A DNA stretch of 62,334 nt, counting the filler, from a bacterium (GTDB taxonomy: Bacteria > JALSQH01), in the NCBI GenBank assembly GCA_027004335.1. It is 10 parts of 10 records of this genome, joined end to end, with 100 filler letters (N's around TTAATTAATTAA, not from the genome) between each part and the next. Parts side by side here need not be neighbours in the genome. Positions count along the whole stretch, not along the records: positions 17,886 to 22,353 come from JALTID010000062.1; 9 more parts are not named here. The stretch is one strand, 5' to 3'. The notes under the pieces are model-generated. The model was not told the DNA's origin, made no database searches, and saw only the letters and a program-made list of their open reading frames with translations. This document shows, one piece after another, positions 2 through 53,509 of the stretch (positions are counted from its first letter, which is position 1; every line of letters starts with the position of its first letter). Both the position numbers and the translations under genes were made by a program.

Positions 2-847
2 ATGGGAGCCATGCCTTTGGATGAAGCCCTCGCAGACAGATTCGGGTTTATTTTCTATTTTAATAATCCTCATGAAAAGTATCTCAAAGAAATTTTAATG
101 GTAAAAACAAAAGAGGATGCTCCACTTTTAAACAACGAAAATGAGATCTCCCCAGACATTGAATTTATGAAAGCGCTGGGATATTACAGGGTACAGTTAG
201 AAAGGAATCTTGAGGATTCTGAAGATCTGAGGGAGACGGTGCAATCAGCTGAGAGAGCATGGAAAACCTATATGCCCAAGAAATATATCAGCCCAAGAAG
301 ATGGAAAATAATTTACTACAACTTAGCAGGAATTAAGACAATAATGAGGAAATTAACACCAGAGCTGGTGAGCAACACAATTTTTTATTCTCTCCCCTTT
401 GCTGCTTATGATGAAGAGTTTCTTGAAAGATTACAGGAGGTAAAACATCTTCTAAGAAATATCATCGGTGGGAAAAAAAGGATCACCTTTTTCGGTAACC
501 TTCCCGGTGTCCACCAGAGATCCCCATTCAATATTGAAAATGAAAACGATCTTGAAGAATTTCTAAAAGAGCTAAAAGACCTTGGAGATAATTGGGAAGA
601 AATTGCAGAAGAAAGAGGATGGGTGTATATCATGATCCTTAAGTTTTTAATAACAGGATCCTATGATGAACACTCCAGAAACTCTCTCATTAATTTTGCG
701 AGATACTTCGGAAACAACTTACCCACCTCTCTCTGGGGAATTGCCTTCATAGCACAGAAGGCATTAACAAAAAGCAGGTCAAGACTGGACGAGGATCATG
801 TGTTAAGAACATATATTAAAACATTTCTAAGGAGGCGAATGCCATGA
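2..847 (+). CDS. MoxR/RavA-like AAA+ ATPase, C-terminal part (5' end outside window)
   Basis: Begins with the 'PLDEALADRF' sensor/arginine-finger segment typical of MoxR AAA proteins; same operon as a vWA protein. Confidence 0.7.
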   Translation: MGAMPLDEALADRFGFIFYFNNPHEKYLKEILMVKTKEDAPLLNNENEISPDIEFMKALGYYRVQLERNLEDSEDLRETVQSAERAWKTYMPKKYISPRRWKIIYYNLAGIKTIMRKLTPELVSNTIFYSLPFAAYDEEFLERLQEVKHLLRNIIGGKKRITFFGNLPGVHQRSPFNIENENDLEEFLKELKDLGDNWEEIAEERGWVYIMILKFLITGSYDEHSRNSLINFARYFGNNLPTSLWGIAFIAQKALTKSRSRLDEDHVLRTYIKTFLRRRMP

Positions 848-1932
848 AAATAATTGCCTACAAAGCCGAAGAAATTGAGAAGGGGATATATGCTTTTGTT
901 GAACAGGAAGAAGAGATGAATATTGATGAGATCATGTTCTTCAGGCCGATCATCAAGCATAGCTTTATTTATTCTCTGGAAATGGACCCATTTAACTTTA
1001 TAAAAAACTACTACAAAAATCTTTACAGAAAATTAGGGCTGGGCGAAATAAGTGACAGAATCCTCACTCTTGGATACGATTCTGAGATTACCATGGTAAA
1101 ATTTATCTCAAAAAACTTTCCCCAATTGCTCCCCTTTTTTGTCCAGTACTCTTCAGGTCATTCAGATGTATTCACTCTTCTTGACTCTCTTTTTAAATTT
1201 GCAGAAGACCAAAAGGTAAGAATCTCATTTCCACCACAACTTCTCAATCTTCCACTTCTTGCAGATATTCTGATACCCCCCTTCATAAAAATGGCATTCA
1301 AAAAAGACAAAGCAGATTTTGAACAGGACACATTCTATCAGCCCAGGAGATATATCTCTCATTATAGGAGGGGAAAACATAGGCCACCGCAACCCCCTGC
1401 GCAGAGGAATTTCAACGGCAGCACGCTGCTTTCCTATACACCAAATTATGAAAATATTTCCTTCGCTGTAGGTAAGATAAACAGAAAGAAGAAGGAAGTT
1501 AAATTCATCACAAAAATTCCAGTGAGTAGAGATATATATGGAGCCGACGGGGAAAGCTTTTCGGAGAAATATATCTATTACAATGGCCACGACTATACTT
1601 TTTATTCCGACATTGGGGAGACCGGAGATAGGGATTTTAACTCAATTTTTCTGATAAATTTTATAATCCTGCCATTTTTCAACCTTCAAGCTGATTATGT
1701 AATTATGCCCAAGGAGGATGAAGAAACAGAAGAAGCAAAATGGCCCGGAGCACCATATATGATCTTTCCATGGTATGCCCCTGTAAAGAGGAAAGATGAT
1801 CAACCTGAAATTTTCTCATCTCACCTGCCCAAGTTTGCCAATCAGGATGTTTACTTCCCGGGTGAACAACTATCAATTGTCCCCATAAAAATCAGCAAGC
1901 CTCTCTTTTTCACAAAAATAGTTACTACCTGA
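844..1932 (+). CDS. hypothetical protein (362 aa) in MoxR-vWA operon
   Basis: Long ORF with ATGA overlap to the upstream gene; no recognisable motif. Confidence 0.75.
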   Translation: MKIIAYKAEEIEKGIYAFVEQEEEMNIDEIMFFRPIIKHSFIYSLEMDPFNFIKNYYKNLYRKLGLGEISDRILTLGYDSEITMVKFISKNFPQLLPFFVQYSSGHSDVFTLLDSLFKFAEDQKVRISFPPQLLNLPLLADILIPPFIKMAFKKDKADFEQDTFYQPRRYISHYRRGKHRPPQPPAQRNFNGSTLLSYTPNYENISFAVGKINRKKKEVKFITKIPVSRDIYGADGESFSEKYIYYNGHDYTFYSDIGETGDRDFNSIFLINFIILPFFNLQADYVIMPKEDEETEEAKWPGAPYMIFPWYAPVKRKDDQPEIFSSHLPKFANQDVYFPGEQLSIVPIKISKPLFFTKIVTT

Positions 1933-1940
1933 GGAGAAAA

Positions 1941-3287
1941 ATGAACAGACTTGATATTCAAAAGATACTTAACAAAGCAAAAAAAATCTCCAAAGAACTC
2001 TCCAGACTTATAGAGTATCTCTTATCAAATGTATCCTCCGTTGAACTCGTAGATGATGGAGTTATATCCACCGCCGCTATAATCATGGAGGAAGAACCCA
2101 GAATATTAATAGGAAAAAATTTCTGGAAGAAAAAGGTTAATAGTTACGAGGACGCTGTAACAGTTTTTGCCCATGAAGTTCTCCATCAAATGATCTATAC
2201 AGAAGAGAGAAATGAGCTGGATAACAGATTTAACAATTTTGTGCAGGACATGTGGATCAATGGTTTTCTATTTGCAAAATATGGGATTGGTAAGAAACTA
2301 TTCAGGAGATTATATGGTCACTCTTCACCTTTTTTCCTTCTGACACCCGCGGGGATCATAAAAGAGAAGGAATCAAAAGCAATCAGAGAATTGTTTCCCG
2401 AATCGGATTTGAAAAGGAAAAAAATTAAACAAATCTGGCTGGGAGTTTCTGAGAATAGATTTACACCACCTCAGCTAAAAAGGCACCTTCTGGAACTTTT
2501 CCCACCTCAATTCATACCCCCTTATTTTCTTCCAGTTCGCACCTTTATTAATCACACAAAATTTCAAAAAAACACCTGGATACCTCTGGAAGTTGGAAGA
2601 GGAAGCAGGGGATTTTCTGAAAATGGTGGTGAGTCTCTGGAGGAAGAAATATCAGAGGTTGATTATGTTTACCACATAAACCAGCTGGTAAAGATCATAT
2701 ATAACTATTTCTCTCCTTCCGGGCAGATCAAGCACAGGATGCTGGAGGAAGAAAATGTAAAGGGAGTCATCCCCAGAATAGGAAGAAGAGAAATTATCAC
2801 CATTTCTCAGGGTAAGACCCCGGTTTTCTTTGACAGTCATGAAATATTTAAAACCACAAGCTACAAATCAGCGGGGATCTGCATTGATGTCTCAGGAAGC
2901 ATGGATGAATTCTATCCCCCTCTCTACTCTCTTATGAAAAAACTATCCAGCTTTATTGAGCCGCCATACTATATTTTCTCAACAAAAATATATGAAACAA
3001 CTCTATCTGATCTAAAGAAAAAAATTATAAGAACCACACTGGGAACATCCATAGATATCGTAATTGAGGATGCAAGAAAAAAGAGGTTGAAAAATGTTGT
3101 CATCGTTACAGATACTCTCTGGCATTTATCCGATGAAAATTTAAAATGGGCTAAAAACAATCTCAATTTGATCCTGATCATCATGGATAACACTGGGCCC
3201 GAGGAATATTTTGAGCTGCCCGATAGAAGTGAAGTAATAAGATTAAAGAAAGCAGGAGCCAGTGTTATAAGATGGTTCATAGCTTAA
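1941..3287 (+). CDS. zincin-like metallopeptidase + vWA domain protein (DUF2201-like)
   Basis: HExxH motif 'AHEVLH', MIDAS 'IDVSGSM', later 'GTS' and 'VIVTD'; GAGGAG RBS. Confidence 0.8.
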   Translation: MNRLDIQKILNKAKKISKELSRLIEYLLSNVSSVELVDDGVISTAAIIMEEEPRILIGKNFWKKKVNSYEDAVTVFAHEVLHQMIYTEERNELDNRFNNFVQDMWINGFLFAKYGIGKKLFRRLYGHSSPFFLLTPAGIIKEKESKAIRELFPESDLKRKKIKQIWLGVSENRFTPPQLKRHLLELFPPQFIPPYFLPVRTFINHTKFQKNTWIPLEVGRGSRGFSENGGESLEEEISEVDYVYHINQLVKIIYNYFSPSGQIKHRMLEEENVKGVIPRIGRREIITISQGKTPVFFDSHEIFKTTSYKSAGICIDVSGSMDEFYPPLYSLMKKLSSFIEPPYYIFSTKIYETTLSDLKKKIIRTTLGTSIDIVIEDARKKRLKNVVIVTDTLWHLSDENLKWAKNNLNLILIIMDNTGPEEYFELPDRSEVIRLKKAGASVIRWFIA

Positions 3288-13271: not shown

Positions 13272-14803
13272 GTCTAAATAGCCTCAAGAAAATAATCACT
13301 GAAGGATATATTTATGTTGATAAAACTAAACATCTTCTGGAACTTATTGAAAATTCTAATTATTACTTCCTCTCCCGACCAAGGAGATTTGGAAAAACCC
13401 TGACAGTGGACACCCTGAAAAACATTTTTGAAGGAAATAAAGAATTATTTGAGGGATTGTACATTTATGATAAGTGGGATTGGAGTAAAAAATATCCTGT
13501 GATAAGGGTGGATTTCAGTAGAATTAGTGCGGAGAGCGAGGAAATCTTCAAGGAAACTCTCATGGAGGTACTTCACTCCATTGCAAATGATCTGGGAATT
13601 GAAAACTGCAAAAGTGGCATCTACAGTAGTTTTTTTCTATGTTTGATAACAGAGGCTTATAAAAAATACAAGATGCCCGTTGTGGTTCTAATAGATGAGT
13701 ATGACAAGCCAATCTTAGACAACATAGAAAATCCCGAACAGGCAGAAAAGATAAGGGATCTCCTTGCAAATTTTTACGGAATATTAAAGGGACTTGATGA
13801 GTATTTGAGGTTTGTTTTTTTAACAGGGGTGACGAAATTTAGCAAGGTGAACCTGTTTAGCAAGTTAAATAACCTCTATGACATTACCATCAATGAGGAA
13901 TTTTCAGAAATTTGTGGATACACTGAGGAGGAGCTGGACAAATATTTCTCAGAATATCTCAGGGATGTAGACAGAGAGCAGGTCAAACTCTGGTACAACG
14001 GGTACAGCTGGCTCGGTGAGAAAGTTTACAATCCATTTGACATCTTATTATTCATAGCTAATAAATTCTCCTTTCGCCCCTACTGGTTTGAAACTGGGAC
14101 CCCTACATTTCTGATGAAGCTGATAAAAAAGCAGAAGTACTACATCCCAAATCTTGAAAAAGTTTTAGCCACAGATGAACTTCTTGGTAGTTTTGATGTT
14201 TACACAATGGAAATAGAGGCACTTTTATGGCAGACTGGATACTTAACCATAAAGGGAACTACACAATTTGGAGTCAGGCAGAGTTACATTCTTTCCTATC
14301 CCAACCAGGAAGTAAAAATATCCTTAAATGAGCACATTGCAAAGTATCTTTCAGGAATGAGTACCTCGGAATACGGGGAAAAAGCAAATCAAGTATATAG
14401 TGCCCTTGCCCAAGGGGAGGTTGAAGGTTTAATCCAGAACTTTAAATCCCTCTTCTCCTCCATAAGTTACACAAATTTTACAAAAAATGAAATAGACTCC
14501 TATGAGGGCTACTACGCAAGCGTAACCTACGCCTACCTTGCATCTCTTGGGGTAGATTTAATCGCAGAGGATGTGACAAATAAGGGAAGGATAGACTTAA
14601 CAGTCCTCGTGAATGATAAAGCATACATTCTGGAATTTAAAATAAAAGAAAACTTTCAGGATAACAAAACCCCCCTCCAGCAGATAAAGGAGAGAAATTA
14701 CTACCAGAAATACCAGGGGAAGGTTAAGGAGATATACCTCATTGGGATCACCTTTAGCAGAGAGAAGAGGAATATTGTGGGATATGAATATGAAAAACTG
14801 TAA
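13272..14803 (+). CDS. AAA-ATPase-like + C-terminal PD-(D/E)XK nuclease (PDDEXK_9/DUF1703-like) protein, 5' end cut by contig edge
   Basis: YVDKT, LSRPRRFGKT, LIDEYDKP, YWFETGTP, GRIDL...ILEFK; frame open from contig start. Confidence 0.9.
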
Positions 14804-17885: not shown

Positions 17886-18948
17886 ACATAGTACCCACCT
17901 GAGTAAAACTCACATTCTCAATACCCTTGAGAAACCCGGTAGCCAATTTCTCCATTATTTCTACCACCTCTTTCCATTTGTTCAGATTCTTCTCAAGATA
18001 ATCAAGTGTAGCCCAGCCTGCTGCCATGGCAACAGGATTCCCGGAAAGAGTGCCTGCCTGATAGATCTCACCCTCAGGAGCCACATGTTCTATTAACTCT
18101 TTCTTACCACCATAAGCACCAACAGGGAATCCACCTCCAATAACCTTGCCCAGTGTAACAAGATCAGGAATAATCCCTGTCAGTTCCGTTGCACCTCCAG
18201 GGGCGATCCTGAAACCTGTCATAACTTCATCAAAAATCAAAATGGAATCATATTCTTCAGTTACTTCCCTTAATGTTTCAAGGAAACCGGGAAGAGGCTC
18301 TACAACCCCCATATTGCCTGCAACAGGCTCCACAATTATAGCTGCAATCTCTTTTCCTCGTTCTTCAAAGAGTCTTTTTACCCCTTCAGTGTCATTGTAT
18401 TCAAGAACTATTGTTTTTTTTACAAAATCCTCAGGGACCCCCGGAGTACCAGGCAGTGAAAGAGTAGCAACCCCGGAACCAGCCTTAACAAGAAGGTAAT
18501 CAGCATGACCGTGATAACAGCCATTAAATTTCACAACGTAATCTCTACCTGTTACCCCCCTGGCAACCCTTATTGCGCTCATGGTTGCCTCTGTACCTGA
18601 GTTTACAAATCTCAACCTTTCTATATGCGGCATAAATTTCTTTATTTTCTCAGCAAGATGGATTTCCCATGGATTGGTAAGCCCAAAACTGAAACCCTTC
18701 TCCACCACAGACTTAACTTTTTCAACCACATAGGGATGGGCATGACCTAGAAGAAGGGGACCCCACGACATGATAAAATCAACATACCTATTTTTATCCA
18801 CATCAAAAATATATGGACCTTCACCTTTATTTATCACTACGGGAGAAGAATCAACAGCTTTAAACGCTCTTACAGGACTATTTACCCCTCCAGGGAAAAA
18901 CTCTCTGGCAGTATTAAAAAGCTTCTCAGAATTTTTTCTCTCTCTCAT
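17886..18948 (-). CDS. hemL: glutamate-1-semialdehyde 2,1-aminomutase (3' end missing)
   Basis: PGGVNSPVRAF, NSGTEATMSAIR, YHGHAD, FDEVMTGFR, GKVIGGG, QAGTLSGNP. Confidence 0.97.
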
Positions 18949-19435
18949 TTAAAAGCCTCCTTGCATAAACAGGGCTACTTTTCTTAAATTCCTTTACACT
19001 TTTATAAATGGCGTATTCCTGGGTGCCAAGCAACTGGACAATTTCTCTTATAATTTTCATAGGCTCTTTTTTGTTTCTTCCATGTATCATTGTAAAAAAA
19101 TTATACTCCCATTTCCCCTGTATTGTAACTCTTTCATAGGCATGGGAAATTTCTCTCTTTTTCTCTACAAATTTTCTAATTTTTTTAAGTTGCTCCTCAT
19201 TCAATTTCCACACAACCATGGCATTGGCCTTATAACCATACTTACGATGCCTCAGTATAGCTCCTATCCTTCTTATATATCCCTTCTGCATTAAAAAATT
19301 AATCCTGTTCAGCACTTCCTCCTGAGAGATCTCAAGAGAATTGCTCAGATCCTTAAATGGCTCAGGCTTAAGAGGTAGATCCCCTTCAAGAAAGGCAAGA
19401 ATCTTAAGATCAAGTTCATCAATATCATTTTTCAT
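18926..19435 (-). CDS. siroheme decarboxylase subunit (AhbB/NirH-like, Lrp/AsnC fold)
   Basis: GDLPL..EPF, RRIGAILRHR..GY.ANAMVVW, SHAYER, YNFFTMIHG; overlaps hemL. Confidence 0.85.
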   Translation of the reverse strand: MKNDIDELDLKILAFLEGDLPLKPEPFKDLSNSLEISQEEVLNRINFLMQKGYIRRIGAILRHRKYGYKANAMVVWKLNEEQLKKIRKFVEKKREISHAYERVTIQGKWEYNFFTMIHGRNKKEPMKIIREIVQLLGTQEYAIYKSVKEFKKSSPVYARRLLNEREKKF

Positions 19436-19520
19436 CCCACAATAGTATATTCACATAATCTTTGTTTTCCAGAGCAACTACCAGCACAGTAGACTAACAT
19501 ATTGGTCCTATACAATAAAC

Positions 19521-19860
19521 TTTTAACCTTTTGAATTTAGTTATAACTTGTTTTAACACTGATAAGACATTTTTTAGCGACCTTCAAAAGCTGTAGCAAT
19601 TGCAAAAGGAATTTTGCGGCCATGCAAATGTACCGGGCGCCATGAATATCCATAATTCAATTTAATAGCCCATTTACATTTGCATAGCAAAATTCTGGAC
19701 ACTAACCAGTTTTTAAAAATAGTATATCTTCCGCAATTGCGTCAACAGCTTTTGGGTCGCACGTTTTTCTTTTGGTGGGTTTTCTTTTTTTGAAAAAGAA
19801 AAGCCACATTATGAGAATGCAATTGAATTTAGCAAGTGAATCATATTGAAAATCCTTTTC
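19521..19860 (+). ncRNA. dispersed structured element, copy A (candidate ncRNA or MITE-like repeat)
   Basis: Homologous to the reverse complement of 51550-52011; nested stems with compensatory changes; 3' triplex motif. Confidence 0.65.
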
Positions 19861-19959
19861 TCTACGAATTTAAGTAAAGATCAAATATGTATTCTCTCTA
19901 AGTGCCAGAGCAACTTCTTTAGTTGCAAATCTATAATAATCCGTTATAATTTTTTTGGT

Positions 19960-20919
19960 ATGAAGTTAGTTGTAATTATCCCTGCCCTAAACGAAGAAAA
20001 AACTATTGCCGATGTTATAAAAAATATCCCCCGGAATATTGAAGGAATTAATAAAATTGAAATCGTAGTGGTAGACGATGGTTCTACAGATAACACTGCT
20101 AAGGTTGCCATGGAAGCAGGAGCTGAGGTGGTTTCACATGGAGTAAATCGGGGAGTTGGAGTGGCATTTAAAACAGGACTAAAAATGGCCCTTGAAAAAA
20201 AAGCTGATATAATGGTTCAGATTGATGGTGATGGGCAGTTCGATCCCGGTGACATCCCAAGGCTTATTAAACCAATAATTGATGGTATTGCAGATTTTGT
20301 TTCTGCTTCACGGTTCAAGAATCCTGAATATACCCCTCCAGATATTTCAGCAGTAAAAAAATGGGGCAACAAAAGGGTCGCATGGCTCGTAAGCAGGATT
20401 GCGGGACAGAAATTTTACGATGTTTCATGCGGCTTCAGAGCTTATAGCAAAGAGGCTCTCCTCAGAATAACACCCATCGCTGAATTCACTTATACTCAGG
20501 AAGTTTTCCTGGAATTAGCATTTAAGAAACTTAGAATCGAAGAGATCCCAGTCAAAGTCAGGGGGCAGAGAGAACATGGCAAATCAAGAATTGCAAGCAA
20601 TATTCCAATCTATGCATATCAGATATCCAAGATCATACTTAGATCTTTCAGAGACTATAAGCCGTTCACCTTTTTTGGGCTTATAGGGCTGGTATTCTTC
20701 CTATCTGGACTACCTCTGGAAGCAGTCCCTGTGATTACCAAAATTTATACAGGTAGTTTCACTCCATACAAAATTTACGGTGCTGCAGGGATAACCATGC
20801 AAATTATAGGTATCCTGCTATTCATAGTGGCCGTACTGGCAGATATAAACACCAGGCATAGAATCCTTCTTGACGAGATTCTTTACTTTGAACGGAGGAA
20901 GAACTTCTACGACCAATAA
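19960..20919 (+). CDS. glycosyltransferase family 2 (polyprenol-phosphate glycosyltransferase-like) with C-terminal TM helices
   Basis: IIPALNEE, VVDDGSTD, IDGDGQFDP, DVSCGFRAY; likely start ATG 19960. Confidence 0.9.
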   Translation: MKLVVIIPALNEEKTIADVIKNIPRNIEGINKIEIVVVDDGSTDNTAKVAMEAGAEVVSHGVNRGVGVAFKTGLKMALEKKADIMVQIDGDGQFDPGDIPRLIKPIIDGIADFVSASRFKNPEYTPPDISAVKKWGNKRVAWLVSRIAGQKFYDVSCGFRAYSKEALLRITPIAEFTYTQEVFLELAFKKLRIEEIPVKVRGQREHGKSRIASNIPIYAYQISKIILRSFRDYKPFTFFGLIGLVFFLSGLPLEAVPVITKIYTGSFTPYKIYGAAGITMQIIGILLFIVAVLADINTRHRILLDEILYFERRKNFYDQ

Positions 20920-20928
20920 GATTTCTTC

Positions 20929-20981
20929 TTGACATCACAATCCTTGTGTGGTTAAATAAAATTGAATATTGTATACAATAT
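20929..20981 (+). promoter_or_regulatory. sigma70-like -35 box and 16-bp palindromic operator upstream of gltA
   Basis: TTGACA at 20929; perfect palindrome ATATTGTATACAATAT at 20966-20981 (GntR-family-like TGTATACA core). Confidence 0.55.
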
Positions 20982-21012
20982 ACAATTAGGAAACTAAACA
21001 AGGAGTAGTGAT

Positions 21013-22317
21013 ATGAAACTCAAAGAAAAGTTAGCGAAAAAGTTAGAGCCATGGAGGGAAGATTACAACAACTTGAGGAAAAACTACGGTGATGTAGTGG
21101 CAGATGAAGCAACAATTGGGAAAATTTTAGGTGGAATGAGGGGGCTAAAGTCACTTTTATGTGAAACTTCCTACCTTGATCCAATTGAAGGGATCAGATT
21201 CAGGGGGCATCCAATTCCTGAAGCAAGAAAACTTCTACCAAAACCTTCAGAAAAAAATGAACCTTATCCAACAGGGTTATGGTTCCTTCTTCTAACAGGG
21301 GAAGTCCCCACAAAAGATGAGGTCCTGGAACTTGAAGAAGAAATGAAGAAAAGATGGGATATCCCCCAGTATGTAATAGATATCCTGCGAGCAGCCCCAA
21401 CAGATACACATCCTATGACGCTGTTCTCTATGGCCATTCTTGCACTCCAGAGAGAATCTCAGTTTTTTAAGGCATACCATTCAGGAGTAGCAAGAAATGA
21501 ATTATGGGAATATGCTCTTGATGACTCAATTACACTCATTGCCAAGCTCCCAAGAATTGCAGCATACATTTTTAGAATGAAATATAGAGGTGATATTCAC
21601 ATTGAACCCGACCCCAAACTTGATTGGGCAGCCAACTTCGCCCACATGCTCGGAGATGATGATCCGGTATTCTATGACCTTATAAGACTTTACTTATTTC
21701 TCCACATCGATCACGAAAGTGGTAATGTGAGCGCCCACACAGGCCATCTGGTACATTCGGCTCTTTCTGATCCATTCTATGCAATTTCAGCCGCAATGGA
21801 TGGGCTTGCTGGTCCTCTTCATGGTCTGGCCAATCAGGAATGCTTGAATTGGATTCTTGAAATGATGGAGAAATATGGTGGAGTACCTACCAAAGAACAG
21901 ATTGAAGAATACGCGTGGGATACTCTGAACAGTGGAAGAGTTATTCCTGGATACGGCCACGCTGTTCTGAGACAGACAGATCCACGGTATATGGCACAGA
22001 GGGAATTTGCACAGAAGTATCTTGCGGATGATCCAGTAGTAAAAACAGTTATGACAGTCTACGAAGTTGTTCCTGATGTACTCAAAAAACATGGTAAGGC
22101 AAAGAATCCATGGCCAAATGTTGATGCACACTCCGGTTCACTGCTCTACCATTATGGCATTAGAGAATTTGAATTCTACACCGTATTCTTCGGCGTATCC
22201 AGATCCATGGGGATTACAGCTGAGATGGTGTACGACAGAATAGTGAACTTTCCCATTGAGAGACCAAAATCACTTACTATTGCAATGTTGAAAGAAATTG
22301 CCGAGGGCAAAAAATAG
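21013..22317 (+). CDS. gltA: citrate synthase, eukaryotic type
   Basis: GGMRGLKSL..ETSYLDP.EGIRFRG, DHESGNVSAH, GLAGPLHGLANQE, PGYGHAVLR, NPWPNVDAHSG. Confidence 0.96.
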   Translation: MKLKEKLAKKLEPWREDYNNLRKNYGDVVADEATIGKILGGMRGLKSLLCETSYLDPIEGIRFRGHPIPEARKLLPKPSEKNEPYPTGLWFLLLTGEVPTKDEVLELEEEMKKRWDIPQYVIDILRAAPTDTHPMTLFSMAILALQRESQFFKAYHSGVARNELWEYALDDSITLIAKLPRIAAYIFRMKYRGDIHIEPDPKLDWAANFAHMLGDDDPVFYDLIRLYLFLHIDHESGNVSAHTGHLVHSALSDPFYAISAAMDGLAGPLHGLANQECLNWILEMMEKYGGVPTKEQIEEYAWDTLNSGRVIPGYGHAVLRQTDPRYMAQREFAQKYLADDPVVKTVMTVYEVVPDVLKKHGKAKNPWPNVDAHSGSLLYHYGIREFEFYTVFFGVSRSMGITAEMVYDRIVNFPIERPKSLTIAMLKEIAEGKK

Positions 22318-22330
22318 TCAGTTGATAGAG

Positions 22331-22353
22331 AAAGGGGGGATTCTCCCCCTTTT
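22331..22353 (+). terminator. intrinsic terminator after gltA
   Basis: AAAGGGGG-GATTCT-CCCCCTTTT hairpin at contig end. Confidence 0.7.
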
Positions 22354-35213: not shown

Positions 35214-37160
35214 CTAAAATGAAATCTCTCCAAGTTTTCCAAAAGACATCCACAAAGACCACTTTTGATTCTTCCTATAGGGCCAGTTATAATAACTAAA
35301 AGAGAATGAAAAACAGTGGCAGGGATCAGAATATTGAAGTGAGATATTCTCTTCAAAGACTTTTTTATTGCCTATAAGGAATCTTTCACCTACTTCTCCT
35401 TTCCAGTTTCCAATTCTTCTGGAAAAAGAGAAAAACCACTGGCCTTCTCCCGACTCCGTGAAATATGGGTAATAAAATGGTTGCTCCGAAATATACATTT
35501 CTTCATTGACTGGCCATAAAAGTGAACCAACATGAAAGCTACCTGCTGAATTATGAATAAAAAAATCAATAAAAACATCAGCTAATCTCCTTCCATCAAA
35601 AATCTGGTGGGAGAGAAGAGAAAGATCATCTTTTTTAACAAGGAAGTCATGAGAAAGAAAGAGTTTTCCGTTCATTCCTATTAAGAACTTCTTACTATCA
35701 GCAAGAATAAAATCACCTGTATCAATTCTGTCATTCACCTTTACAAAAAAACCTTTAAATGGAGAGAATGAATCCAGCCCGTCATTATAGACATCAAGCA
35801 CTTTCCGCCAGAAAAGATATCTGTATCCTGCTGTTATAACTGAATTATGGGTAAAATATGAATTACTTCCCTTTATCATCATGGTAATAGCGTAATTTAG
35901 ATACCAGATTCCGTAGTAATTTCCAGAAAAATTTTCCAGCACAGAATTTTGATCAATAGAAAATGTAGCATAACGCATATTAAAACTCTTTCCCCAGAAA
36001 ATTCCAGTGAGATTTCTTACCTCTTTTTTGCTCTGTGGTATATCAAATCGACTCCAGACAACCCCATCTCCCAGTGAAGTTAAAGCTGGAACAGATGAGA
36101 AACCGATGACTGGGTAAAAAGAAAAATTCCCTGTTCCCACATCCTGAAAGAGAGTTATATCACCGTAAAATTTTCCAAGATCAATAAATTTCTGGTAATC
36201 AAAAGATGAAGGCAGAAAACTCTTCCCCCGGCTTGCAGGATCATCAACATAGTATGCTCTCAAAAAAGGATTCAACATCATATCAGCATTAATATTCCAT
36301 GCGACTGACGAACCATTGTAAAAATGCGATCCTCGTAATTCTGCAAAATTTCCTGCATCCCCGAAAGCGCTTTTCAAACTCCATCTACCTTTGCTCTTCT
36401 CAGAAATAATGTAATTGAGTAATCCACCTATACCTATATTTCCTGTGGAGTAATAATCAAGTTGCAATATCCCCTCTGACCATGGTGAAAGATTAAGGTA
36501 AAAGGGTAAATGCATCTCAAACCCTCTCTCTCCAGTATAGCTAAATCTTGGAAAAAGAAACCCTGTTTCTCTCTCATATTTGGCAGGCAAAATCAACAGA
36601 GGCACCCAAAGAACTTTTATTCCTCTAAATCTTACAGAACCACTAAAAATCCATGAGTATCCCCCAAGTCTCATCGTTATCTTACCTGCCTCAATTTCCC
36701 AGAAAGGGGGAGGATGTTCACAAGCACAGGAAGAGTAGTAGGCGTCTGTCACAATTATTCTCCTGCCCTCAACCTTGAGAGACTTTCCCCTTATGGTAAG
36801 ATGTTCAAGTGGAAATAAAACTTTCACATCCTCAACATATATTTTTCTCGGATAAACAGAAAAAGTTAAAGATCTCCCATACATAACGAAGCCTTCACCT
36901 ATTACAGACACCTCTCCAGAAGAGGAAAATTTGAAGTTCTTTTTATCAAGTAAAAATTTATCTCCCTTGATAAGAATATTACCATATTTAATTTCTACAT
37001 TGCCCTTCAAATAAAGGACCTTCTTCTTCCAGTTGTAACGGAGGTAATTCGAATAAACAGTAACTCCTGTAATTTCAACAGAAGCGGGAGGAACATAGGC
37101 AGCAACAGAAGAAACAACGCTTTCAAAAGAAAATAGAAAAAGAAAAAAAAACTTTTTCAA
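35214..37160 (-). CDS. lptD: LPS-assembly protein LptD-like
   Basis: OstA-like 'LKGNVEIKYG', 'YSSC.C..PP.W.I.A', 'RETGFLFP', aromatic beta-barrel C-terminus with 'DPCHCF'. Confidence 0.7.
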   Translation of the reverse strand: MKKFFFLFLFSFESVVSSVAAYVPPASVEITGVTVYSNYLRYNWKKKVLYLKGNVEIKYGNILIKGDKFLLDKKNFKFSSSGEVSVIGEGFVMYGRSLTFSVYPRKIYVEDVKVLFPLEHLTIRGKSLKVEGRRIIVTDAYYSSCACEHPPPFWEIEAGKITMRLGGYSWIFSGSVRFRGIKVLWVPLLILPAKYERETGFLFPRFSYTGERGFEMHLPFYLNLSPWSEGILQLDYYSTGNIGIGGLLNYIISEKSKGRWSLKSAFGDAGNFAELRGSHFYNGSSVAWNINADMMLNPFLRAYYVDDPASRGKSFLPSSFDYQKFIDLGKFYGDITLFQDVGTGNFSFYPVIGFSSVPALTSLGDGVVWSRFDIPQSKKEVRNLTGIFWGKSFNMRYATFSIDQNSVLENFSGNYYGIWYLNYAITMMIKGSNSYFTHNSVITAGYRYLFWRKVLDVYNDGLDSFSPFKGFFVKVNDRIDTGDFILADSKKFLIGMNGKLFLSHDFLVKKDDLSLLSHQIFDGRRLADVFIDFFIHNSAGSFHVGSLLWPVNEEMYISEQPFYYPYFTESGEGQWFFSFSRRIGNWKGEVGERFLIGNKKVFEENISLQYSDPCHCFSFSFSYYNWPYRKNQKWSLWMSFGKLGEISF

Positions 37161-39961: not shown

Positions 39962-41492
39962 ATTTGGTTATATGGATGATGCTTTCAGGAGGATAGATTA
40001 TATAACCACTTTCCAGCCAGATTCAGTGACAATGGAGGTTAGTGGGTTAAATGTGATTTTAAAGGGTGATGTGGTGAAGAAATTGTTTTCCGGTGTTACC
40101 ACCGATGTTGTAACTCTCAGTCTGGATGGAGAGTGGGGGATGCCAGAGGTGCTTTTTGTAGGGGCATTGATGAGTGGTTTTTACGGTGTGTGGGAGATTC
40201 TTATGTCCCAGAATTTGGGTATGGCAAGTGACTGGATAGCTATTTCCAATGATTATAAGTCAATGGTTGATAGTGATGCAGAGATGCCCAATTTTATAGC
40301 TCATGTGTTTGGTAACTACAGGAATCTATTTACATGGGATAAAAATGGGAAGAATTACTATCTGAAGAGTAGATATTATTTTGCAGGGATGCTTGATTAT
40401 CTATTTGGCGGTAAGGAACAATTAACATTTCCTGATGGAACAACATTTATCGCACCAGCTACTGAAGGGTTGATGAATTTATTAAAGAGCAGAGTTGTTT
40501 CATCCAGCAGCAGTACCTCAAAGTATCTTACCATAGTTGATACAGATGATAGTGGAGATATTTCTCCGGGAGATCTATTTGCAGTAAAGGGTATTCAAGC
40601 TCTTTATGAGCTTGCTAAAAGTGAAAAACAGGGTTATATCATCAATCCATTTTCTCAGAAACTACTTGATGAGATTTCCACTGCAGCTGAAAAGATAAAG
40701 GAGCAGATATTGAATTATGAGCAATCCAATGCTGATGTTGATTTTGGGGTGTTGGTTTCTAAAATTTTAAGAGATCTACGTGAAGCAGTGGGTTATACTG
40801 GAGGAACTGGAGATGTATTCCCTGCGGGATTCGTTATGGCGGATTTTGGAGCTCTTTACAGGGTGGTAGATGAAGATGAATTTCGTGGGTTGAGGTTCTT
40901 TTTGCCTGCATGGGTCTATAATGGAGGAGCTACAAGGAGTGACAGCGGATATATTCGTGGAGATGCAGATGCGTTTTTTAGACCTTTTGATTATATTATG
41001 ATGTGGGAGTGGGAGGGATACCTTGGAGATAATCCTTTTTGTCATGATTGTTATGCTTATGATGGCGAGGTAGATGGCAGGGATGGGCCTTTTTTGGGTT
41101 TCGAAATTTACTCTGTTCCTTTTACAGATGTTTCCCATTTTAATCTCTTTTTATCAGATAGTGGTGTGTTGAACAAAGATTTTCTTGGTAATGTTTCAGA
41201 TCCCACAGATGCAATTATAAAAAATCTTGTTATATTACCACCTGATGGAATACTTCCCCCGGCAGATGAAAGGGGTAGTGTGCTGTACTACTTTGATTGG
41301 CAGGAACCCACTCTCTGGGGATTTTTGAGGATTGATCCCGGTAAGTTCCCTGATAATTGTAAGCCTGCAATAAGTGCAGGGTATGACGAAACCACCCTTA
41401 ACCAGATAGAAATTAATGGTTTTCTTAATTGCATTTTAATCAATTATAATGGGTTGAATGACTATGTGAAAAAGCAGGGATTGATAAGGTGA
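39962..41492 (+). CDS. hypothetical protein (5' end missing)
   Basis: ORF of over 500 codons; EF-hand-like 'DTDDSGDIS'; no family recognised. Confidence 0.7.
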
Positions 41493-49002: not shown

Positions 49003-51260
49003 GAGCTACACCCTGCGCTTTTCTTTTTTTTCGCCGGAGGGGGATAATTCACCGGTAAGCTGATCTGTTCAAAGACCTCAGGGTGATAATATGCCAGAAC
49101 AGAGAGTGAGATCAGTGAAGCTTCCCATACATGTGGAATAGAAGTTACATCCAGCCAGTGGTAGGTGTTACCTTCATAGATGGGCATGTATGCCTCACCC
49201 ACATGAAATGTGCCTTTGAGTGGAAGATTTACGGATAGTTCATGGACAATTTCCCCAAGGGTATCCCTCCTTGAATCAGTAGCAGGCAAAATATAATCCA
49301 TTGCCACAGCAGTTTTGGCATCATAGGCTGAGCCATAAGGAGAAGGATGAAGGATATTCCCCTGAAGGGTATTAAAAGCGTAATCAATCTGCCCCACCCA
49401 TCTTGGATCATTTTTTGGCCACAGTTCTACAGGCCACATTGCCCAGGAACCATTACCATAATATTCAAAATTACCGTTAAATCTTCTCAATTTTTTGTCA
49501 TAGAGATTCTCATAAATTGCCTCATTTAGCTCTTCTGCTCTACTTTCCCATTTCTTCATATCATCAATCTTACCCAGATACCCGGCAACCTCAGCAGCAG
49601 ATTTCAAACCAAGATACTCAGTTACTGCCCCCTGCAACCCCTGAGTGGGGAAAATATTATCATCCTCACTGGCAGGACATTGAAGCTTATTATCAGGATC
49701 CCTGCACTTCATCAGCGCCTCGGCAGCAAGTTTTATATCGGGATAAAACTCGTTGTAATACTCTTTCCTCTCCTTTTCATCACTGATAAACTTCCCATGA
49801 ATACACCATGACCAGAGGACAAGTCCCGTTTCATCAATTTCAAAATCAATGGGACCTCCTACCATGCCATCGGGGAAAAAATTCATGGCAAAGGTTCCAG
49901 CGGGGCTGTTAGGAGTAAGTGCCTTCTGATAATCCCACTTCCTCTGCATATCTGCGTAAAAATGCTCATGTTTCAGGACAAGATCATGGTACCCCACAGT
50001 ATCAAGGAAATAATTTATGAAAGCTCCATCCCTTGGCCAATCGAGGAAATATGGAGGCTGATTTGCCACAGAAGCCACAATAGCACCTGTCTTCTTATCC
50101 ATAGAGGTAGCGATGGTTATAACGGTGCGCAGGACAAAGCGTTTCTCATCCTCTGGAATATCCCCAGGGATCTTAGCCTTTGCCGTAAAATTTTCCCACC
50201 AGCCAAGGATATCTTGAAGGAGAGAAGAAAAACCACTATTTTTAACTTCAGACAAAGCGCTTAATGCTTCATCCTGTGTGTTAGCAGATGATAGATAAAT
50301 TGCATTCCATTCCCCACTCTTTACATTTCCCATAAGAGCTAAATCAACTCTGTTAGTAGAAATCTGATTCTCTGAAAGTTTACCATCCATCAGGTCCTGA
50401 TATGCATCCTGGATACTACTTCTCTGTAAAATCTCTCTATCAACTCCACACTGAAACTCGCTGATGGGGAAACTGGACCCTACAACAAGATATAGCCCTT
50501 TTCCAAAGTAATCCCCGATACCCTCTATCTTTGATTCAATATTTTCTCCGGAAATTGTTCCCAGCCACGAATTAAGTTTATCAAGACTATCCTGAGTTAG
50601 TGATGGTGGAACATAATCTATAAAATATTGACCTGTACGGGAATAAGAAAGTAGAAAACCTTTGTCTTTATCCATATAAGAAGAAAGAGGTACAAATTCA
50701 ATCCTTTTCATGGAAAGAGCCGGATTCAAGAAGAAGAAGAGTTTGACACCTGTGATCGTATCAGGATATCTTACATTAAATGCTATTGTGAGAACATCGC
50801 TCTCAGGATGCACAAAATCCACCTGTGTTACATCAATACTGTACTCATCAGAATGGAATCTATGAACAAGCACCCCGGAGTTATCTGTATAATATTCAGT
50901 GGTGACACTCCATGTTACAGGATCCCGAAAAAAAGTAACAACTTTTTTATCATTGAGAAAAAAAACCAGCCCCCCAAACCCTCCCATATTATCCAGTGCT
51001 CCAAGATGAGGCAGCTCCCTGGCATCAGGGGCACTTGAAGTAGTGTAATTCAACAATTCATAGTAGGAAGGGTTGGGCCATCGAAGCACCGTTAACTCGC
51101 CCCATTTTGAAAAAGCAGCAGTGGTACCACCCTCACCAACAATTCCGTAAATATTGGTGGCACCAAACATCAATTCCGCTTCATTAGCAGCAGGAAAGAG
51201 GAATAAAGGAAGGAGTAAAATTGCAAAGCAAATAAATAAATAACTTACTACCCTTTTCAC
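49003..51260 (-). CDS. secreted six-hairpin glycosidase (GH15/glucoamylase-like); C-terminal tail is on the contig starting 22454
   Basis: Signal peptide, 'GAIVAS', 'DWPRDG', 'FEIDETG', 'SEDD'. Confidence 0.75.
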
Positions 51261-51339
51261 AAGTTTAATTATAATAGAAAATGTTAAAAAAATGAAGAGC
51301 TCCTGAAATTTTTAACAGAGCAGGTTTTAAATTTAAGAG

Positions 51340-51367
51340 GCAGGGGCAGATAATCATCTGCCCCTCC
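51340..51367 (+). repeat. REP-like palindrome
   Basis: GC-AGGGGCAGAT-AATC-ATCTGCCCCT-CC; same family as 14800-14855 and 15031-15055. Confidence 0.65.
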
Positions 51368-51549
51368 TGGAAATTCAAAATCCGGATGATTCTCCAGATA
51401 TTTTGTTATCGTCCTATAAACAACATCATCCTTACGCAGTTCATCAAGGTATTTAATCATGTGTAAAAATTAGCAGATGATGGGAGAAAAAGCAAGAGGA
51501 CACTATTTCTCAAAGAGATGGGGGATACATCCTGCCCCCTTTGCTTAAG

Positions 51550-52011
51550 AAAAAGGATTTCTCAATATGATTCACTTGCTAAATTCCATTGCATTCTCAA
51601 ATGTGGGTTTTCTTTTTCAAAAAAAGAAAACCCACCAAAAGAAAAACATGCGACCCAAAAGCCGTTGACGCAATTGCGGAAGATATTCTATTTTCAAAAA
51701 AAGATAATATCCGGAATTTTGCTATGCGAACATAAATGGGCTACTCAATTAAATTCCAGAGATTCACGGCGCCCGTATATTCGCATTGACGCAAAAAAGG
51801 CGTATTTGCCTCCGCTGTATTACCTTTCTCTTTTCCAATCTGCTTCTCATGTATTTGCAGGTATGGATAACATAACCTATTTATAATAGCCCATCGGCTT
51901 TTGATCGGACAAAATGTCCGCTCAAAAAATTGCTACGGCTTTTGAAGGTCGCAAAAAAAGGAGGTTCGATTCCTGTTAATACAAGATATAGTTAACTCCA
52001 TAAACTTAAAA
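51550..52011 (-). ncRNA. dispersed structured element, copy B (longer form)
   Basis: Homolog of 19521-19860 plus a ~130-bp internal segment (51797-51927) with its own hairpins. Confidence 0.65.
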
Positions 52012-52019
52012 AGATTATT

Positions 52020-52085
52020 TCAGGGGTCAATATTTCTCAGATCCCGCTCGGCAGAATGTTTCCACAGGATCTTATAATAATCCAT
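52020..52085 (-). pseudogene. truncated RelE/ParE-type toxin (21 codons)
   Basis: MDYYKILWKHSAERDLRNIDP-stop overlapping the antitoxin 3' end; resembles the RelE N-terminal 'Y.I.....A..DL..I' pattern. Confidence 0.65.
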
Positions 52086-52293
52086 CTTTTTTAAGATGTT
52101 CTTTCAAGTCTTCAAACGAAATTGTGGGTTCATCCTTTCGCTCTGCAATCACGGCAAGATCATGAAGATCCTCTATTATTTTTTCATACTCTTCAATAGG
52201 GAGAACTACTGCGATCTTTTCTCCCTTTTCATTTACAATATATTGCTCATGAGCTTCATTTACCATAATTTCACTTTCTTTATTTTTTTTCAT
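52072..52293 (-). CDS. type II antitoxin (RelE-partner type)
   Basis: 'QYIVNEKGEKIAVVLPIEEYEKIIEDLHDL...ERKDEPTISFEDLK'; AGGAG RBS before ATG 52293. Confidence 0.75.
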   Translation of the reverse strand: MKKNKESEIMVNEAHEQYIVNEKGEKIAVVLPIEEYEKIIEDLHDLAVIAERKDEPTISFEDLKEHLKKDGLL

Positions 52294-52428
52294 ATTCTTT
52301 CTCCTGCTTATTCTATCTAATTTTATTGTATGCCGCGAAACAATATTTGTCAAAAATGAGAATTATCTCTATAGATAACCAATGTCATATTTCCCTCCTC
52401 TCTCCCGTTTATTTATTAGATATGCTCT

Positions 52429-52881
52429 ATGGTGGTGATATTTATGGAAATCAGGATCTTCAAATTGAGGTCGGCATTGTACTGGAAGGGGAAGAAGATA
52501 TACTCAATGGATCATATAAATCCATTCCTTGGAATAAAAAGATACGGAGATGGAAATATTAATTTTTATTCTGGATGCCCTATCTCATTTGTATGGGAAT
52601 TGGCAGGGAAAGGGGTTCCATTTTTTGATGAGACAGAGACAGAGCTCAAGCTCCCCTTTATTGTAGAGGTATGGAATGAAGTTATCATTCCAGAAAATAT
52701 GATCATAAAGGAATTAGCCACAATTCCCCGGAGAATATTCAGAGAAAAAATGAAAATTACAAAGTACCTGAGCAATGAAACAGATCCTGAGATTCTGTCA
52801 TTCAGGGAAAGGGAGAAGAACCGCTGGAAAGAAATTCTCCTGAGACTTTCATTATGCTACTTTCCCACGCTTAACAAATAA
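52429..52881 (+). CDS. hypothetical protein
   Basis: 150-aa ORF (alternative ATG 52444); no motif recognised. Confidence 0.55.
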   Translation: MVVIFMEIRIFKLRSALYWKGKKIYSMDHINPFLGIKRYGDGNINFYSGCPISFVWELAGKGVPFFDETETELKLPFIVEVWNEVIIPENMIIKELATIPRRIFREKMKITKYLSNETDPEILSFREREKNRWKEILLRLSLCYFPTLNK

Positions 52882-52882
52882 T

Positions 52883-52945
52883 TCACAGCTCAATTTCTTC
52901 AAGAATGTCTTCCAGGACTACCTTCAAGATCCGCCTTTTAGACAT
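52883..52945 (-). pseudogene. truncated HepT/DUF86 HEPN toxin (20 codons)
   Basis: MSKRRILKVVLEDILEEIEL-stop overlapping the MNT gene end; resembles the DUF86 N-terminus 'MSKR....LEDILE.IE'. Confidence 0.65.
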
Positions 52946-53234
52946 AGATAACTTCTTCCAATATGTAGGGCTTAATCCTCGGTTTTAGCGCTGTCTTGCT
53001 AACAAGATCCACAGGAATTTTAAACAGATCCTCAAGGTAAAATTTCAAACCCATGTAATTATCAAGGGTTTTAAATCCTTCTTTAAACTCAACAAGGATG
53101 TCGATATCGCTTTTCATGGTAGCATCTCCACGCACATAGGACCCAAAAATTCCGATCTCTTTTATACCAAATCTTTCACGGATCTCAGGATCATGTAATT
53201 TAAGAAGATTGATTATTTCTTCTAACTTCTTCAT
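52938..53234 (-). CDS. MntA-type minimal nucleotidyltransferase antitoxin
   Basis: 'IGIFGSYVRGD....SDIDILVEF', 'LEDLF..PVDLV'. Confidence 0.9.
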   Translation of the reverse strand: MKKLEEIINLLKLHDPEIRERFGIKEIGIFGSYVRGDATMKSDIDILVEFKEGFKTLDNYMGLKFYLEDLFKIPVDLVSKTALKPRIKPYILEEVIYV

Positions 53235-53509
53235 TGTTATCCCTAAATTGATTATGTCACAAAGAAAACTTTCAGTCAAATGGGGAATTATCAAATAATT
53301 ACTCTGTTCTCCCTTTAATCTCTATCCCCGAAAAATAAGTAGAAGAACAAACTGAAAATTAAAAACAGAACAAACAATATACCAAAAGGAGGAAAAATCA
53401 ACCACAGGGNNNNNNNNNNNNNNNNNNNNNNNNNNNNNNNNNNNNNNNNNNNNTTAATTAATTAANNNNNNNNNNNNNNNNNNNNNNNNNNNNNNNNNNN
53501 NNNNNNNNN

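Follow-up and report, generated by a model that had tools for sequence, protein, structure and literature searches.

What is the non-coding element that occurs twice in this DNA of an uncultured hydrothermal-vent bacterium, in diverged copies whose base pairing appears to be kept? The window, meaning the whole stretch of 62,334 nucleotides that was analysed, consists of contigs chained with N spacers and has a G+C content of 38%; within it the element measures 350–470 bases and encodes no protein. An earlier note on the same DNA had proposed either a new non-coding RNA or a mobile element. The two copies, the fold that they share, their surroundings and their possible relatives were examined computationally, and the candidate explanations were weighed against each other.

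Two copies in unrelated surroundings

The limits of blastn homology placed copy A at positions 19514–19859 on the plus strand and copy B at positions 52019–51551 on the minus strand. The limits given in the earlier note (19521–19860 and 51550–52011) were a near match to these but were not exact at the ends. The copies lie on different contigs (17886–22353 for A and 49003–53409 for B) and in unrelated gene contexts, as had been stated previously. The flanks past the element are unrelated (14 of 41 positions identical beyond the right end), and the right-hand homology stops abruptly at 19859/19860 in A. Identity between the copies by blastn was 87.6% over the 3' 249 nt and 75% over the 5' 92 nt. 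A third copy was found in the window neither by blastn nor by a covariance model run with the filters off, which scored the two copies at 205 and 151 bits (150.9 for B) and the next match at 15 bits. Two copies within 62 kb of a genome of probably a few megabases suggest that more copies are present elsewhere in the genome.

Copy A is located inside a 526-nt gap between a leftward gene encoding an AsnC/NirDL-type regulator (18926–19435) and a rightward gene encoding a GT2 glycosyltransferase (ATG at 19960), which is followed by the citrate synthase gene. Copy B, read on the minus strand, has a RelB antitoxin gene upstream and, downstream, a 58-codon ORF and then a gene for a GH15-like enzyme with a signal-peptide-like N-terminus. 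Each copy is oriented toward the next gene and lies about 100 nt from the start of that gene.

Copy B begins, within about 15 nt, where a stub of a ParE/RelE-type toxin gene ends (52020–52085, minus strand). This stub, which comprises 21 codons and a stop and overlaps the end of the RelB gene, aligned with the N-termini of five out of six ParE_toxin-family proteins of other genomes, with low scores of 27–40, and alone had no match in Pfam or among PDB sequences. The remaining ~80 toxin codons were absent on both sides of copy B. We infer that the toxin gene was cut on arrival of the B segment, or by an associated deletion. Because only the first 21 toxin codons are left after the RelB-type antitoxin gene (52020–52353 region, minus strand), the antitoxin is orphaned; a gene encoding an MNT-type nucleotidyltransferase is located nearby (52938–53294).

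Anatomy of the element

Copy A starts with an AT-rich 5' module of 63 nt (19514–19576, plus strand), which carries a small conserved DNA palindrome and showed no significant fold (z −0.98). The module is followed by the 5' strand of a long closing stem, P1 (19577–19603), which reads as 6 bp, a UU bulge, 10 bp, an A and 8 bp and pairs with the 3' strand at 19733–19760. P1 thus has 24 bp (6 + 10 + 8), and its UU bulge and 1x4 internal loop are kept in both copies; the identity between A and B is 25/27 for the 5' strand and 25/26 for the 3' strand. Taken as DNA, the strands of P1 are inverted repeats of 27 bp that enclose 129 nt in A and 250 nt in B. The interior of A (19604–19732) consists of an inner arm of four helices (19608–19620; 19622–19632/19675–19685; 19635–19638/19668–19671; 19643–19647/19655–19659), followed by a mostly unpaired 3' strand (~19699–19732). 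The second of these helices, of 11 bp, is the inner stem nested within P1.

P1 ends in GGUCGC, and 3 nt past it begins a U-tract (19764–19773; 9 U in 10), which exists on the A+/B− strand only, referred to here as the sense strand, and which may be terminator-like. An intrinsic-terminator scan made no call in A and called only a small local hairpin in B, and P1 as a terminator stem would enclose 130–250 nt, which is atypical. Hairpin 2 (19775–19807) has a T/A-rich stem of 15 bp with a G/G mismatch in A and perfect pairing in B, and the element is completed by an unstructured, highly conserved 3' tail of 52 nt (19808–19859).

The corresponding parts of copy B (51551–52019, minus strand) are P1 at 51952–51928 with 51677–51650, hairpin 2 at 51635–51603 and the tail at 51602–51551. 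The interior of B is larger by 92 + 29 nt (121 nt in total). The first insertion (51836–51927, 92 nt) folds into small hairpins of its own and is bordered by similar short words, which could be the mark of a nested insertion or, alternatively, of a slippage deletion in A. The second insertion (51797–51825, 29 nt) forms part of a 14-bp helix (51831–51818 with 51709–51696), which uses the 3' strand that stays unpaired in A.

Pairing and conservation between the copies

The pairing claimed in the earlier note was borne out in all three of its stems. In the outer stem, P1, a U-A pair in A is C-G in B; the inner stem carries two double compensatory changes and one change from U-A to U-G; and the apical 5-bp stem carries one change from G-C to G-U, so that two compensatory doubles and two G-U changes fall within the interior. 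When B was compared with the 56 pairs of the fold of A, 12 positions were found to have changed, giving three compensatory doubles, three G-U pairs and two breaks, and both broken pairs sit in the weakest helices. Paired cells made up 98.2% of 112, a proportion that fell to 29–42% once partners were slid by 1–3 columns. In 100,000 random placements of the 12 stem substitutions of B, two or fewer broken pairs were obtained in 0.023% and at least three compensatory doubles in 0.099%, which corresponds to a P of ~2e-4 to 1e-3 for the pairing kept in B. An alignment shuffle test, which is weak with two sequences, gave 59/500. The two doubles and the wobble of the inner stem lie within 5 bp of each other, and the third compensatory pair is located about 100 nt off in a different helix. 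Pairing has therefore been maintained, by whatever means, as judged from three events in two sequences.

It had also been argued that the wobbles work only on the A+/B− strand and that this implies a fold of defined polarity. The first part of this argument holds, with three G-U pairs and no A-C pairs on that strand; the second is less well supported, as the folding energies do not favour A+/B−. The core of A folds at −64.9 kcal/mol in the sense and −74.7 kcal/mol in the antisense direction, and the core of B at −97.2 kcal/mol in the sense, slightly better than −93.2 kcal/mol in the antisense direction. The three G-U pairs in one copy weakly suggest a polarity leaning toward A+/B−.

Conservation between A and B is uneven. 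Instead of the roughly 55 conserved nt that had been noted on each side, the flanks were found to be unequal, with the 63 nt of the 5' module at 65% identity (41/63) and the 99 nt of the 3' module, which includes the U-run, hairpin 2 and the tail, at 93% (91/98). The inner arm is identical at 77/96 positions and the unpaired 3' strand at 27/33. The 3' module is the best conserved part and lies outside the big fold, and the 25 nt immediately upstream of P1 are poorly conserved. Changes were found in 12 of 112 paired columns versus 17 of 73 unpaired columns; since paired columns change less than unpaired ones, the constrained parts are the stems and the 3' module, not the loops and junctions. 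Such a contrast between the two modules is more suggestive of functional constraint than of dead copies drifting apart.

Coding capacity, promoters and known families

No conserved ORF was found in any frame of the two copies, and Pfam scans of 50 window ORFs and three short frames detected no transposase, reverse transcriptase, integrase, HUH or TnpB domain, in agreement with the earlier note, which had seen no transposase and no convincing ORF. A recombinase was likewise not found within the window. The sole hydrophobic frame shared by the copies lacks a start codon and is shifted by a 1-nt indel in B, and a type I toxin was rejected on these grounds. A retron was rejected because no reverse transcriptase gene lies downstream, where the GT2 and citrate synthase genes follow A and the 58-codon ORF and the GH15-like gene follow B; an IS110-type bridge RNA was rejected because the flanks have no target motif in common, and a tRNA-fragment integration site was dropped after reading by eye. 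Elsewhere in the window, two convergent paralogous genes (13406–14803, plus strand, cut by the contig end; 14852–16705, minus strand) are each predicted to encode an AAA-ATPase (PF09820) and a PD-(D/E)XK nuclease (PF08011), and four long ORFs of 362, 448, 648 and 506 codons (844–3287, 35214–37160, 39972–41492) have no Pfam match at E 1e-5.

No Rfam family accounts for the element, as had been anticipated. Among the 4227 models of Rfam 15, including those for 6S RNA, HEARO, IS605-orfB, group II introns and riboswitches, none reached its gathering cut-off over either copy, and two tRNAs alone passed the cut-off in a scan of the whole window. At E values up to 10, neither copy gave anything but noise, which fell chiefly on hairpin 2 with its low complexity and scored 21.9 bits at best against a cut-off of 78.

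Signs of the ends of a classical mobile element were also absent. In local alignments of the left end with the reverse-complemented right end, shuffled sequences did as well in 300/300 cases for A and 230/300 for B, so that no terminal inverted repeats were recognised, and for terminal direct repeats, which were not recognised either, shuffles were as good in 43/300 and 62/300 cases. No target-site duplication was seen, there being no direct repeat at the homology boundaries of either copy. The word ATATTG recurs in both copies, once close to the left boundary and again within the tail, but the conserved sequence runs on past it.

The 5' module contains no sense sigma-70-like promoter. Two promoter-like sites, recognised by consensus match only, are kept in both copies: a sense site across hairpin 2 (TTGAAA, 16 or 17 nt, GAGAAT; 19790–19818 in A), the first hexamer of which lies in the loop of hairpin 2, and one on the antisense strand at the P1 boundary. 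Of the promoter-like sites around A, the strongest (TTGCAA, 16 nt, TATAAT, 10 of 12 matches; 19923–19950) is located between the element and the start codon of the GT2 gene, which makes it unlikely that the element is the leader of that gene. This near-consensus promoter ends 9 nt before the ATG, and no Shine-Dalgarno sequence is present (19923–19962), suggesting that the GT2 mRNA may be leaderless or nearly so. The 58-codon ORF after B likewise has no Shine-Dalgarno sequence, and two G/C-clamped, terminator-like hairpins at 51489–51541 and 51326–51347 (minus strand), just downstream of B, lie inside or after this ORF and cast doubt on it as a real gene.

Searches for further copies and relatives

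A distant-mode blastn search of phages and plasmids returned no further copy, and there were no matches to one exact pattern of the element in a genome contig collection and none to three patterns in a viral contig collection. In a metagenome contig collection, one exact pattern gave a single chance match within a coding gene. BLAST with the element in five genomes yielded short weak matches only (best E 0.006), mostly to the low-complexity stretch of hairpin 2, and none at all in the 13 genomes that represent the order of the best citrate synthase relative. A covariance model, R1, with 162 positions and 45 pairs, for which A was entered twice and B once, found no homologue in those 13 genomes, in a 151-genome sample of their class or in 13 genomes of a second candidate lineage. 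None of the searched genomes is close to the organism of the window, so these blanks say little. When the 122-codon ORF on the antisense strand of B served as a stand-in for further copies, no protein matched it. Hairpin 2 (19775–19807 and 51603–51635) gave many short weak BLAST matches in distant genomes, 17 of them in one genome (G001); being of low complexity, it could mislead searches.

The neighbouring genes were also used as queries. The citrate synthase query returned 80 loci, with up to 68% identity to some Acidobacteria-labelled bins, and the AsnC-like gene, hemL, RelB, GH15 and other neighbour genes were shared by none of the 112 loci examined, so that there was no empty site to compare. 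None of the 13 genomes from the order of the best citrate synthase relative carried a close GT2 orthologue. RNase Y of the window reached 54–55% at most in 401 genomes of the Acidobacteria-labelled phylum, five other candidate genomes and a candidate phylum of 13 genomes; three of the 401 are flagged as unpublished, and none of the conclusions depends on them. Judging from these protein comparisons, the organism of the window has no close relative within the genome collection searched.

Parts of the A locus were present in two hydrothermal-vent metagenome runs, and the only runs with near-identical words were hydrothermal-vent metagenomes. Four vent-metagenome runs were compared as Logan contigs only, which drop minor forms and in which stretches without cover say nothing. 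Among the contigs of run X2, record 8 (19506–19655) has seven differences from the window and record 10 (19779–19902) has three; record 10 extends 43 nt beyond the right end of the element, which indicates that a related strain has the element at the A locus. Record 9 (19590–19759), with 18 differences, three single-base gaps and none of the insertions of B, represents a third variant, and in one contig 19618 is joined to 19724, the 105-nt inner arm being missing or replaced. At least two further variants were found among the X2 contigs.

The element contigs of X2 (records 8 and 10) are 2–5% off the window and the flanking-gene contigs (records 7 and 11) are 12–14% off, a difference compatible both with purifying selection on a gene and with a recent spread; different strains may have contributed the contigs. 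The summed contig depth of the element is roughly that of its flanks, which argues against a high copy number there. Since the short X2 contigs perhaps come from different strains, only two conclusions were drawn from them, namely that vent communities harbour further members of the element family and that the interior of the element varies. The interior is dispensable or expandable, having gained 121 nt in B and being skipped over 105 nt in the X2 contig. No strand-changing joint at the enclosed segment was listed among the contigs, which are a poor test of inversion.

Interpretation of the element and its rivals

The reading that we prefer, with a probability of about 0.4, is that the element belongs to a small, lineage-restricted family of non-coding, dispersed, non-autonomous hairpin-based repeats, similar in behaviour to REPINs and to Correia and ERIC repeats. 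This reading draws on the unrelated loci, the sharp ends of homology, the truncated neighbour gene, the modular interior, the conservation of stems above loops and the lack of any promoter, ORF or RNA-family match. From the earlier proposal of a new non-coding RNA or a mobile element, a two-copy non-coding element with kept pairing has been upheld, and a non-autonomous hairpin element fits somewhat better; the terminal repeats were not found, and a partner gene was not seen in the window. The absence of terminal repeats, of a target-site duplication and of a mobility domain in the scanned window ORFs, together with the presence of two copies only in the window, stands against a dispersed repeat, as do the strongly uneven conservation and the X2 contig depth.

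If the element is such a repeat, it would be copied to new places by an enzyme that is probably encoded outside the window, and its stems would be needed in single-stranded form, either as DNA while the element is being copied or as RNA where transcription from the neighbourhood reads through. The working unit may then be made up of the constant parts, which are P1, the U-tract, hairpin 2 and the tail, with the interior hairpins as tolerated or nested additions, and copy B would have been pasted beside the toxin gene of which only a stub is left. Effects on the host, if there are any, would be secondary: the element could act as a hairpin in RNA or in the manner of a terminator, and its 3' module may include a promoter directed outward.

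The closest rival, which we regard as possible but less probable than the dispersed repeat, is a family of sibling small RNA genes, in which an RNA of ~190–200 nt would be transcribed from the A+/B− strand, closed by P1 and ended at the U-tract, with the 5' module serving as its promoter and regulator site. The compensatory changes, the G-U rather than A-C pairs of B on the A+/B− strand, the restriction of the U-tract to that strand, the uneven conservation and the X2 element contigs that are nearer to the window than the flanking-gene contigs are all in its favour, as is the start of homology ~63 nt upstream of P1, which is the size of a promoter region and includes the conserved small palindrome. 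However, the 5' module has no sigma-70-like sense promoter and is poorly conserved in the 25 nt before P1, hairpin 2 and the tail, at 93% the best conserved part, lie past the putative RNA end, the interior is enlarged in B and skipped in an X2 contig, folding of A is better in the antisense direction, and the covariance model found no homologue in the 13 + 151 + 13 genomes, none of which is a close relative. A large functional RNA with a conserved core is likewise difficult to reconcile with stems more conserved than loops, an interior that varies by +121/−105 nt and a best-conserved 3' module outside the fold. It is also unlikely, though worth consideration, that the element represents a new class of structured element of a deep-branching vent bacterium, be it a modular non-coding RNA with the long bulged closing stem and the 3' single-stranded tail as its core, or a non-autonomous element copied via a strand-specific single-stranded hairpin by an enzyme that has so far not been associated with substrates of this kind.

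Three less probable explanations were considered as well. In a duplicated stretch without function, template switching in replication or repair within the palindromes, and not selection, could preserve the complementarity of the quasi-palindromes, and template switching is reported to create and maintain hairpins via apparent compensatory changes (bioRxiv 10.1101/2021.04.15.439925). The two doubles and the wobble in the inner stem are close enough to have arisen in a single event, and both strands fold about equally well. A templated copy would be expected to give perfect complements, yet three of the changes are G-U, the third compensatory pair lies in another helix, and the conserved bulges and uneven conservation are left unexplained, so that we consider this explanation improbable. 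Invertons occur upstream of surface-polysaccharide genes, and the P1 repeats could be recombinase sites around a segment that flips and so changes how the glycosyltransferase or secreted glycosidase gene next to it is expressed, with the matching repeat changes arising by homogenisation during inversion. The inverted repeats around 129 or 250 nt, the GT2 gene downstream of A, the GH15-like enzyme with its signal-peptide-like N-terminus after the 58-codon ORF, and the promoter-like hexamers in or at the edge of the segment would all suit such a switch. Inversion would not account for the hairpin that the interior forms by itself or for the compensatory changes within it, and the repeats of both copies share the same bulges, the GT2 gene has its own strong promoter outside the element, the window contains no recombinase and the contigs, a poor test, list no strand-changing joint, all of which make an inverton very unlikely. 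Lastly, a cis-regulatory leader, such as a riboswitch or attenuator for the downstream carbohydrate genes, is suggested by the orientation of both copies toward a next gene that starts ~100 nt away and by two U-rich runs that might pair alternatively with the A-rich strand of hairpin 2. We regard such a leader as very unlikely, because the best promoter of the GT2 gene is located between the element and the ATG, the GH15 gene lies ~290 nt past B with its own TATAAT-like box (read by eye), the position of A between divergent genes makes orientation uninformative, loops and junctions are less conserved than stems, which is the reverse of riboswitches, and paralogous leaders are seldom 88% identical over 249 nt.

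Two findings would give the element wider significance. If the full genome contains more copies and a co-occurring gene, a lineage without a close sequenced relative would have yielded a new non-autonomous element of the hairpin type, perhaps together with its enzyme; if a discrete transcript is made, the element would define a new structured RNA family. As it stands, the repeat is well supported, if unexplained, and its two sequences are useful as a seed for covariance-model searches of vent metagenomes.

Comparison with known systems

Sibling small RNAs and 6S-like RNAs resemble the element in its 184-nt fold (19577–19760), the ends of which are paired in a long bulged stem followed by a U-tract. 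6S RNA itself was rejected because no Rfam 6S match was obtained at E up to 10, the internal loop has 4 nt on one side and ~35 nt on the other and is not a balanced bubble, and the interior is variable. Integron attC sites are similar in their bulged stem, variable centre and single-strand folding, and toxin-antitoxin genes, the remnant of which lies beside one copy of the element, are a common integron cassette cargo. attC sites measure 57–141 bp and occur in arrays, whereas each contig carries one copy of the longer element, and the R/L box pattern was not seen on reading the stem; an attC site was rejected on account of size, array and box pattern.

REPINs, which are doublets of REP sequences that form hairpins and are moved by RAYT, share with the element its non-coding, dispersed and extragenic nature and its two inverted conserved arms around a less conserved spacer. 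Compensatory changes in the hairpin of REPINs are reported as common (PMC3116915). REPINs are ~70–100 bp long and symmetrical and reach tens to hundreds of copies, in contrast to the 350–470 bp, the unrelated 5' and 3' modules and the two observed copies of the element.

Correia (CREE), ERIC and BOX-type repeats are, like the element, imperfect palindromes in intergenic DNA, and size variants of Correia and ERIC repeats arise from internal insertions or deletions. Correia-type repeats are reported to bear promoter-like sequences at an end and to be folded and cut as RNA hairpins (PMC2649163). These repeats differ from the element in having terminal inverted repeats at their very ends, with a TA duplication in Correia, where the ends of the element are not repeats; the element is also two to three times longer and is present in few copies. 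The element did not pass formal tests for a MITE, as neither terminal repeats nor a duplication were found, and the copy number looks low. In conclusion, the feature is real and could be assigned to none of the described families against which it was tested; as a structured intergenic repeat or small RNA, represented by two full sequences, it is of a familiar kind.
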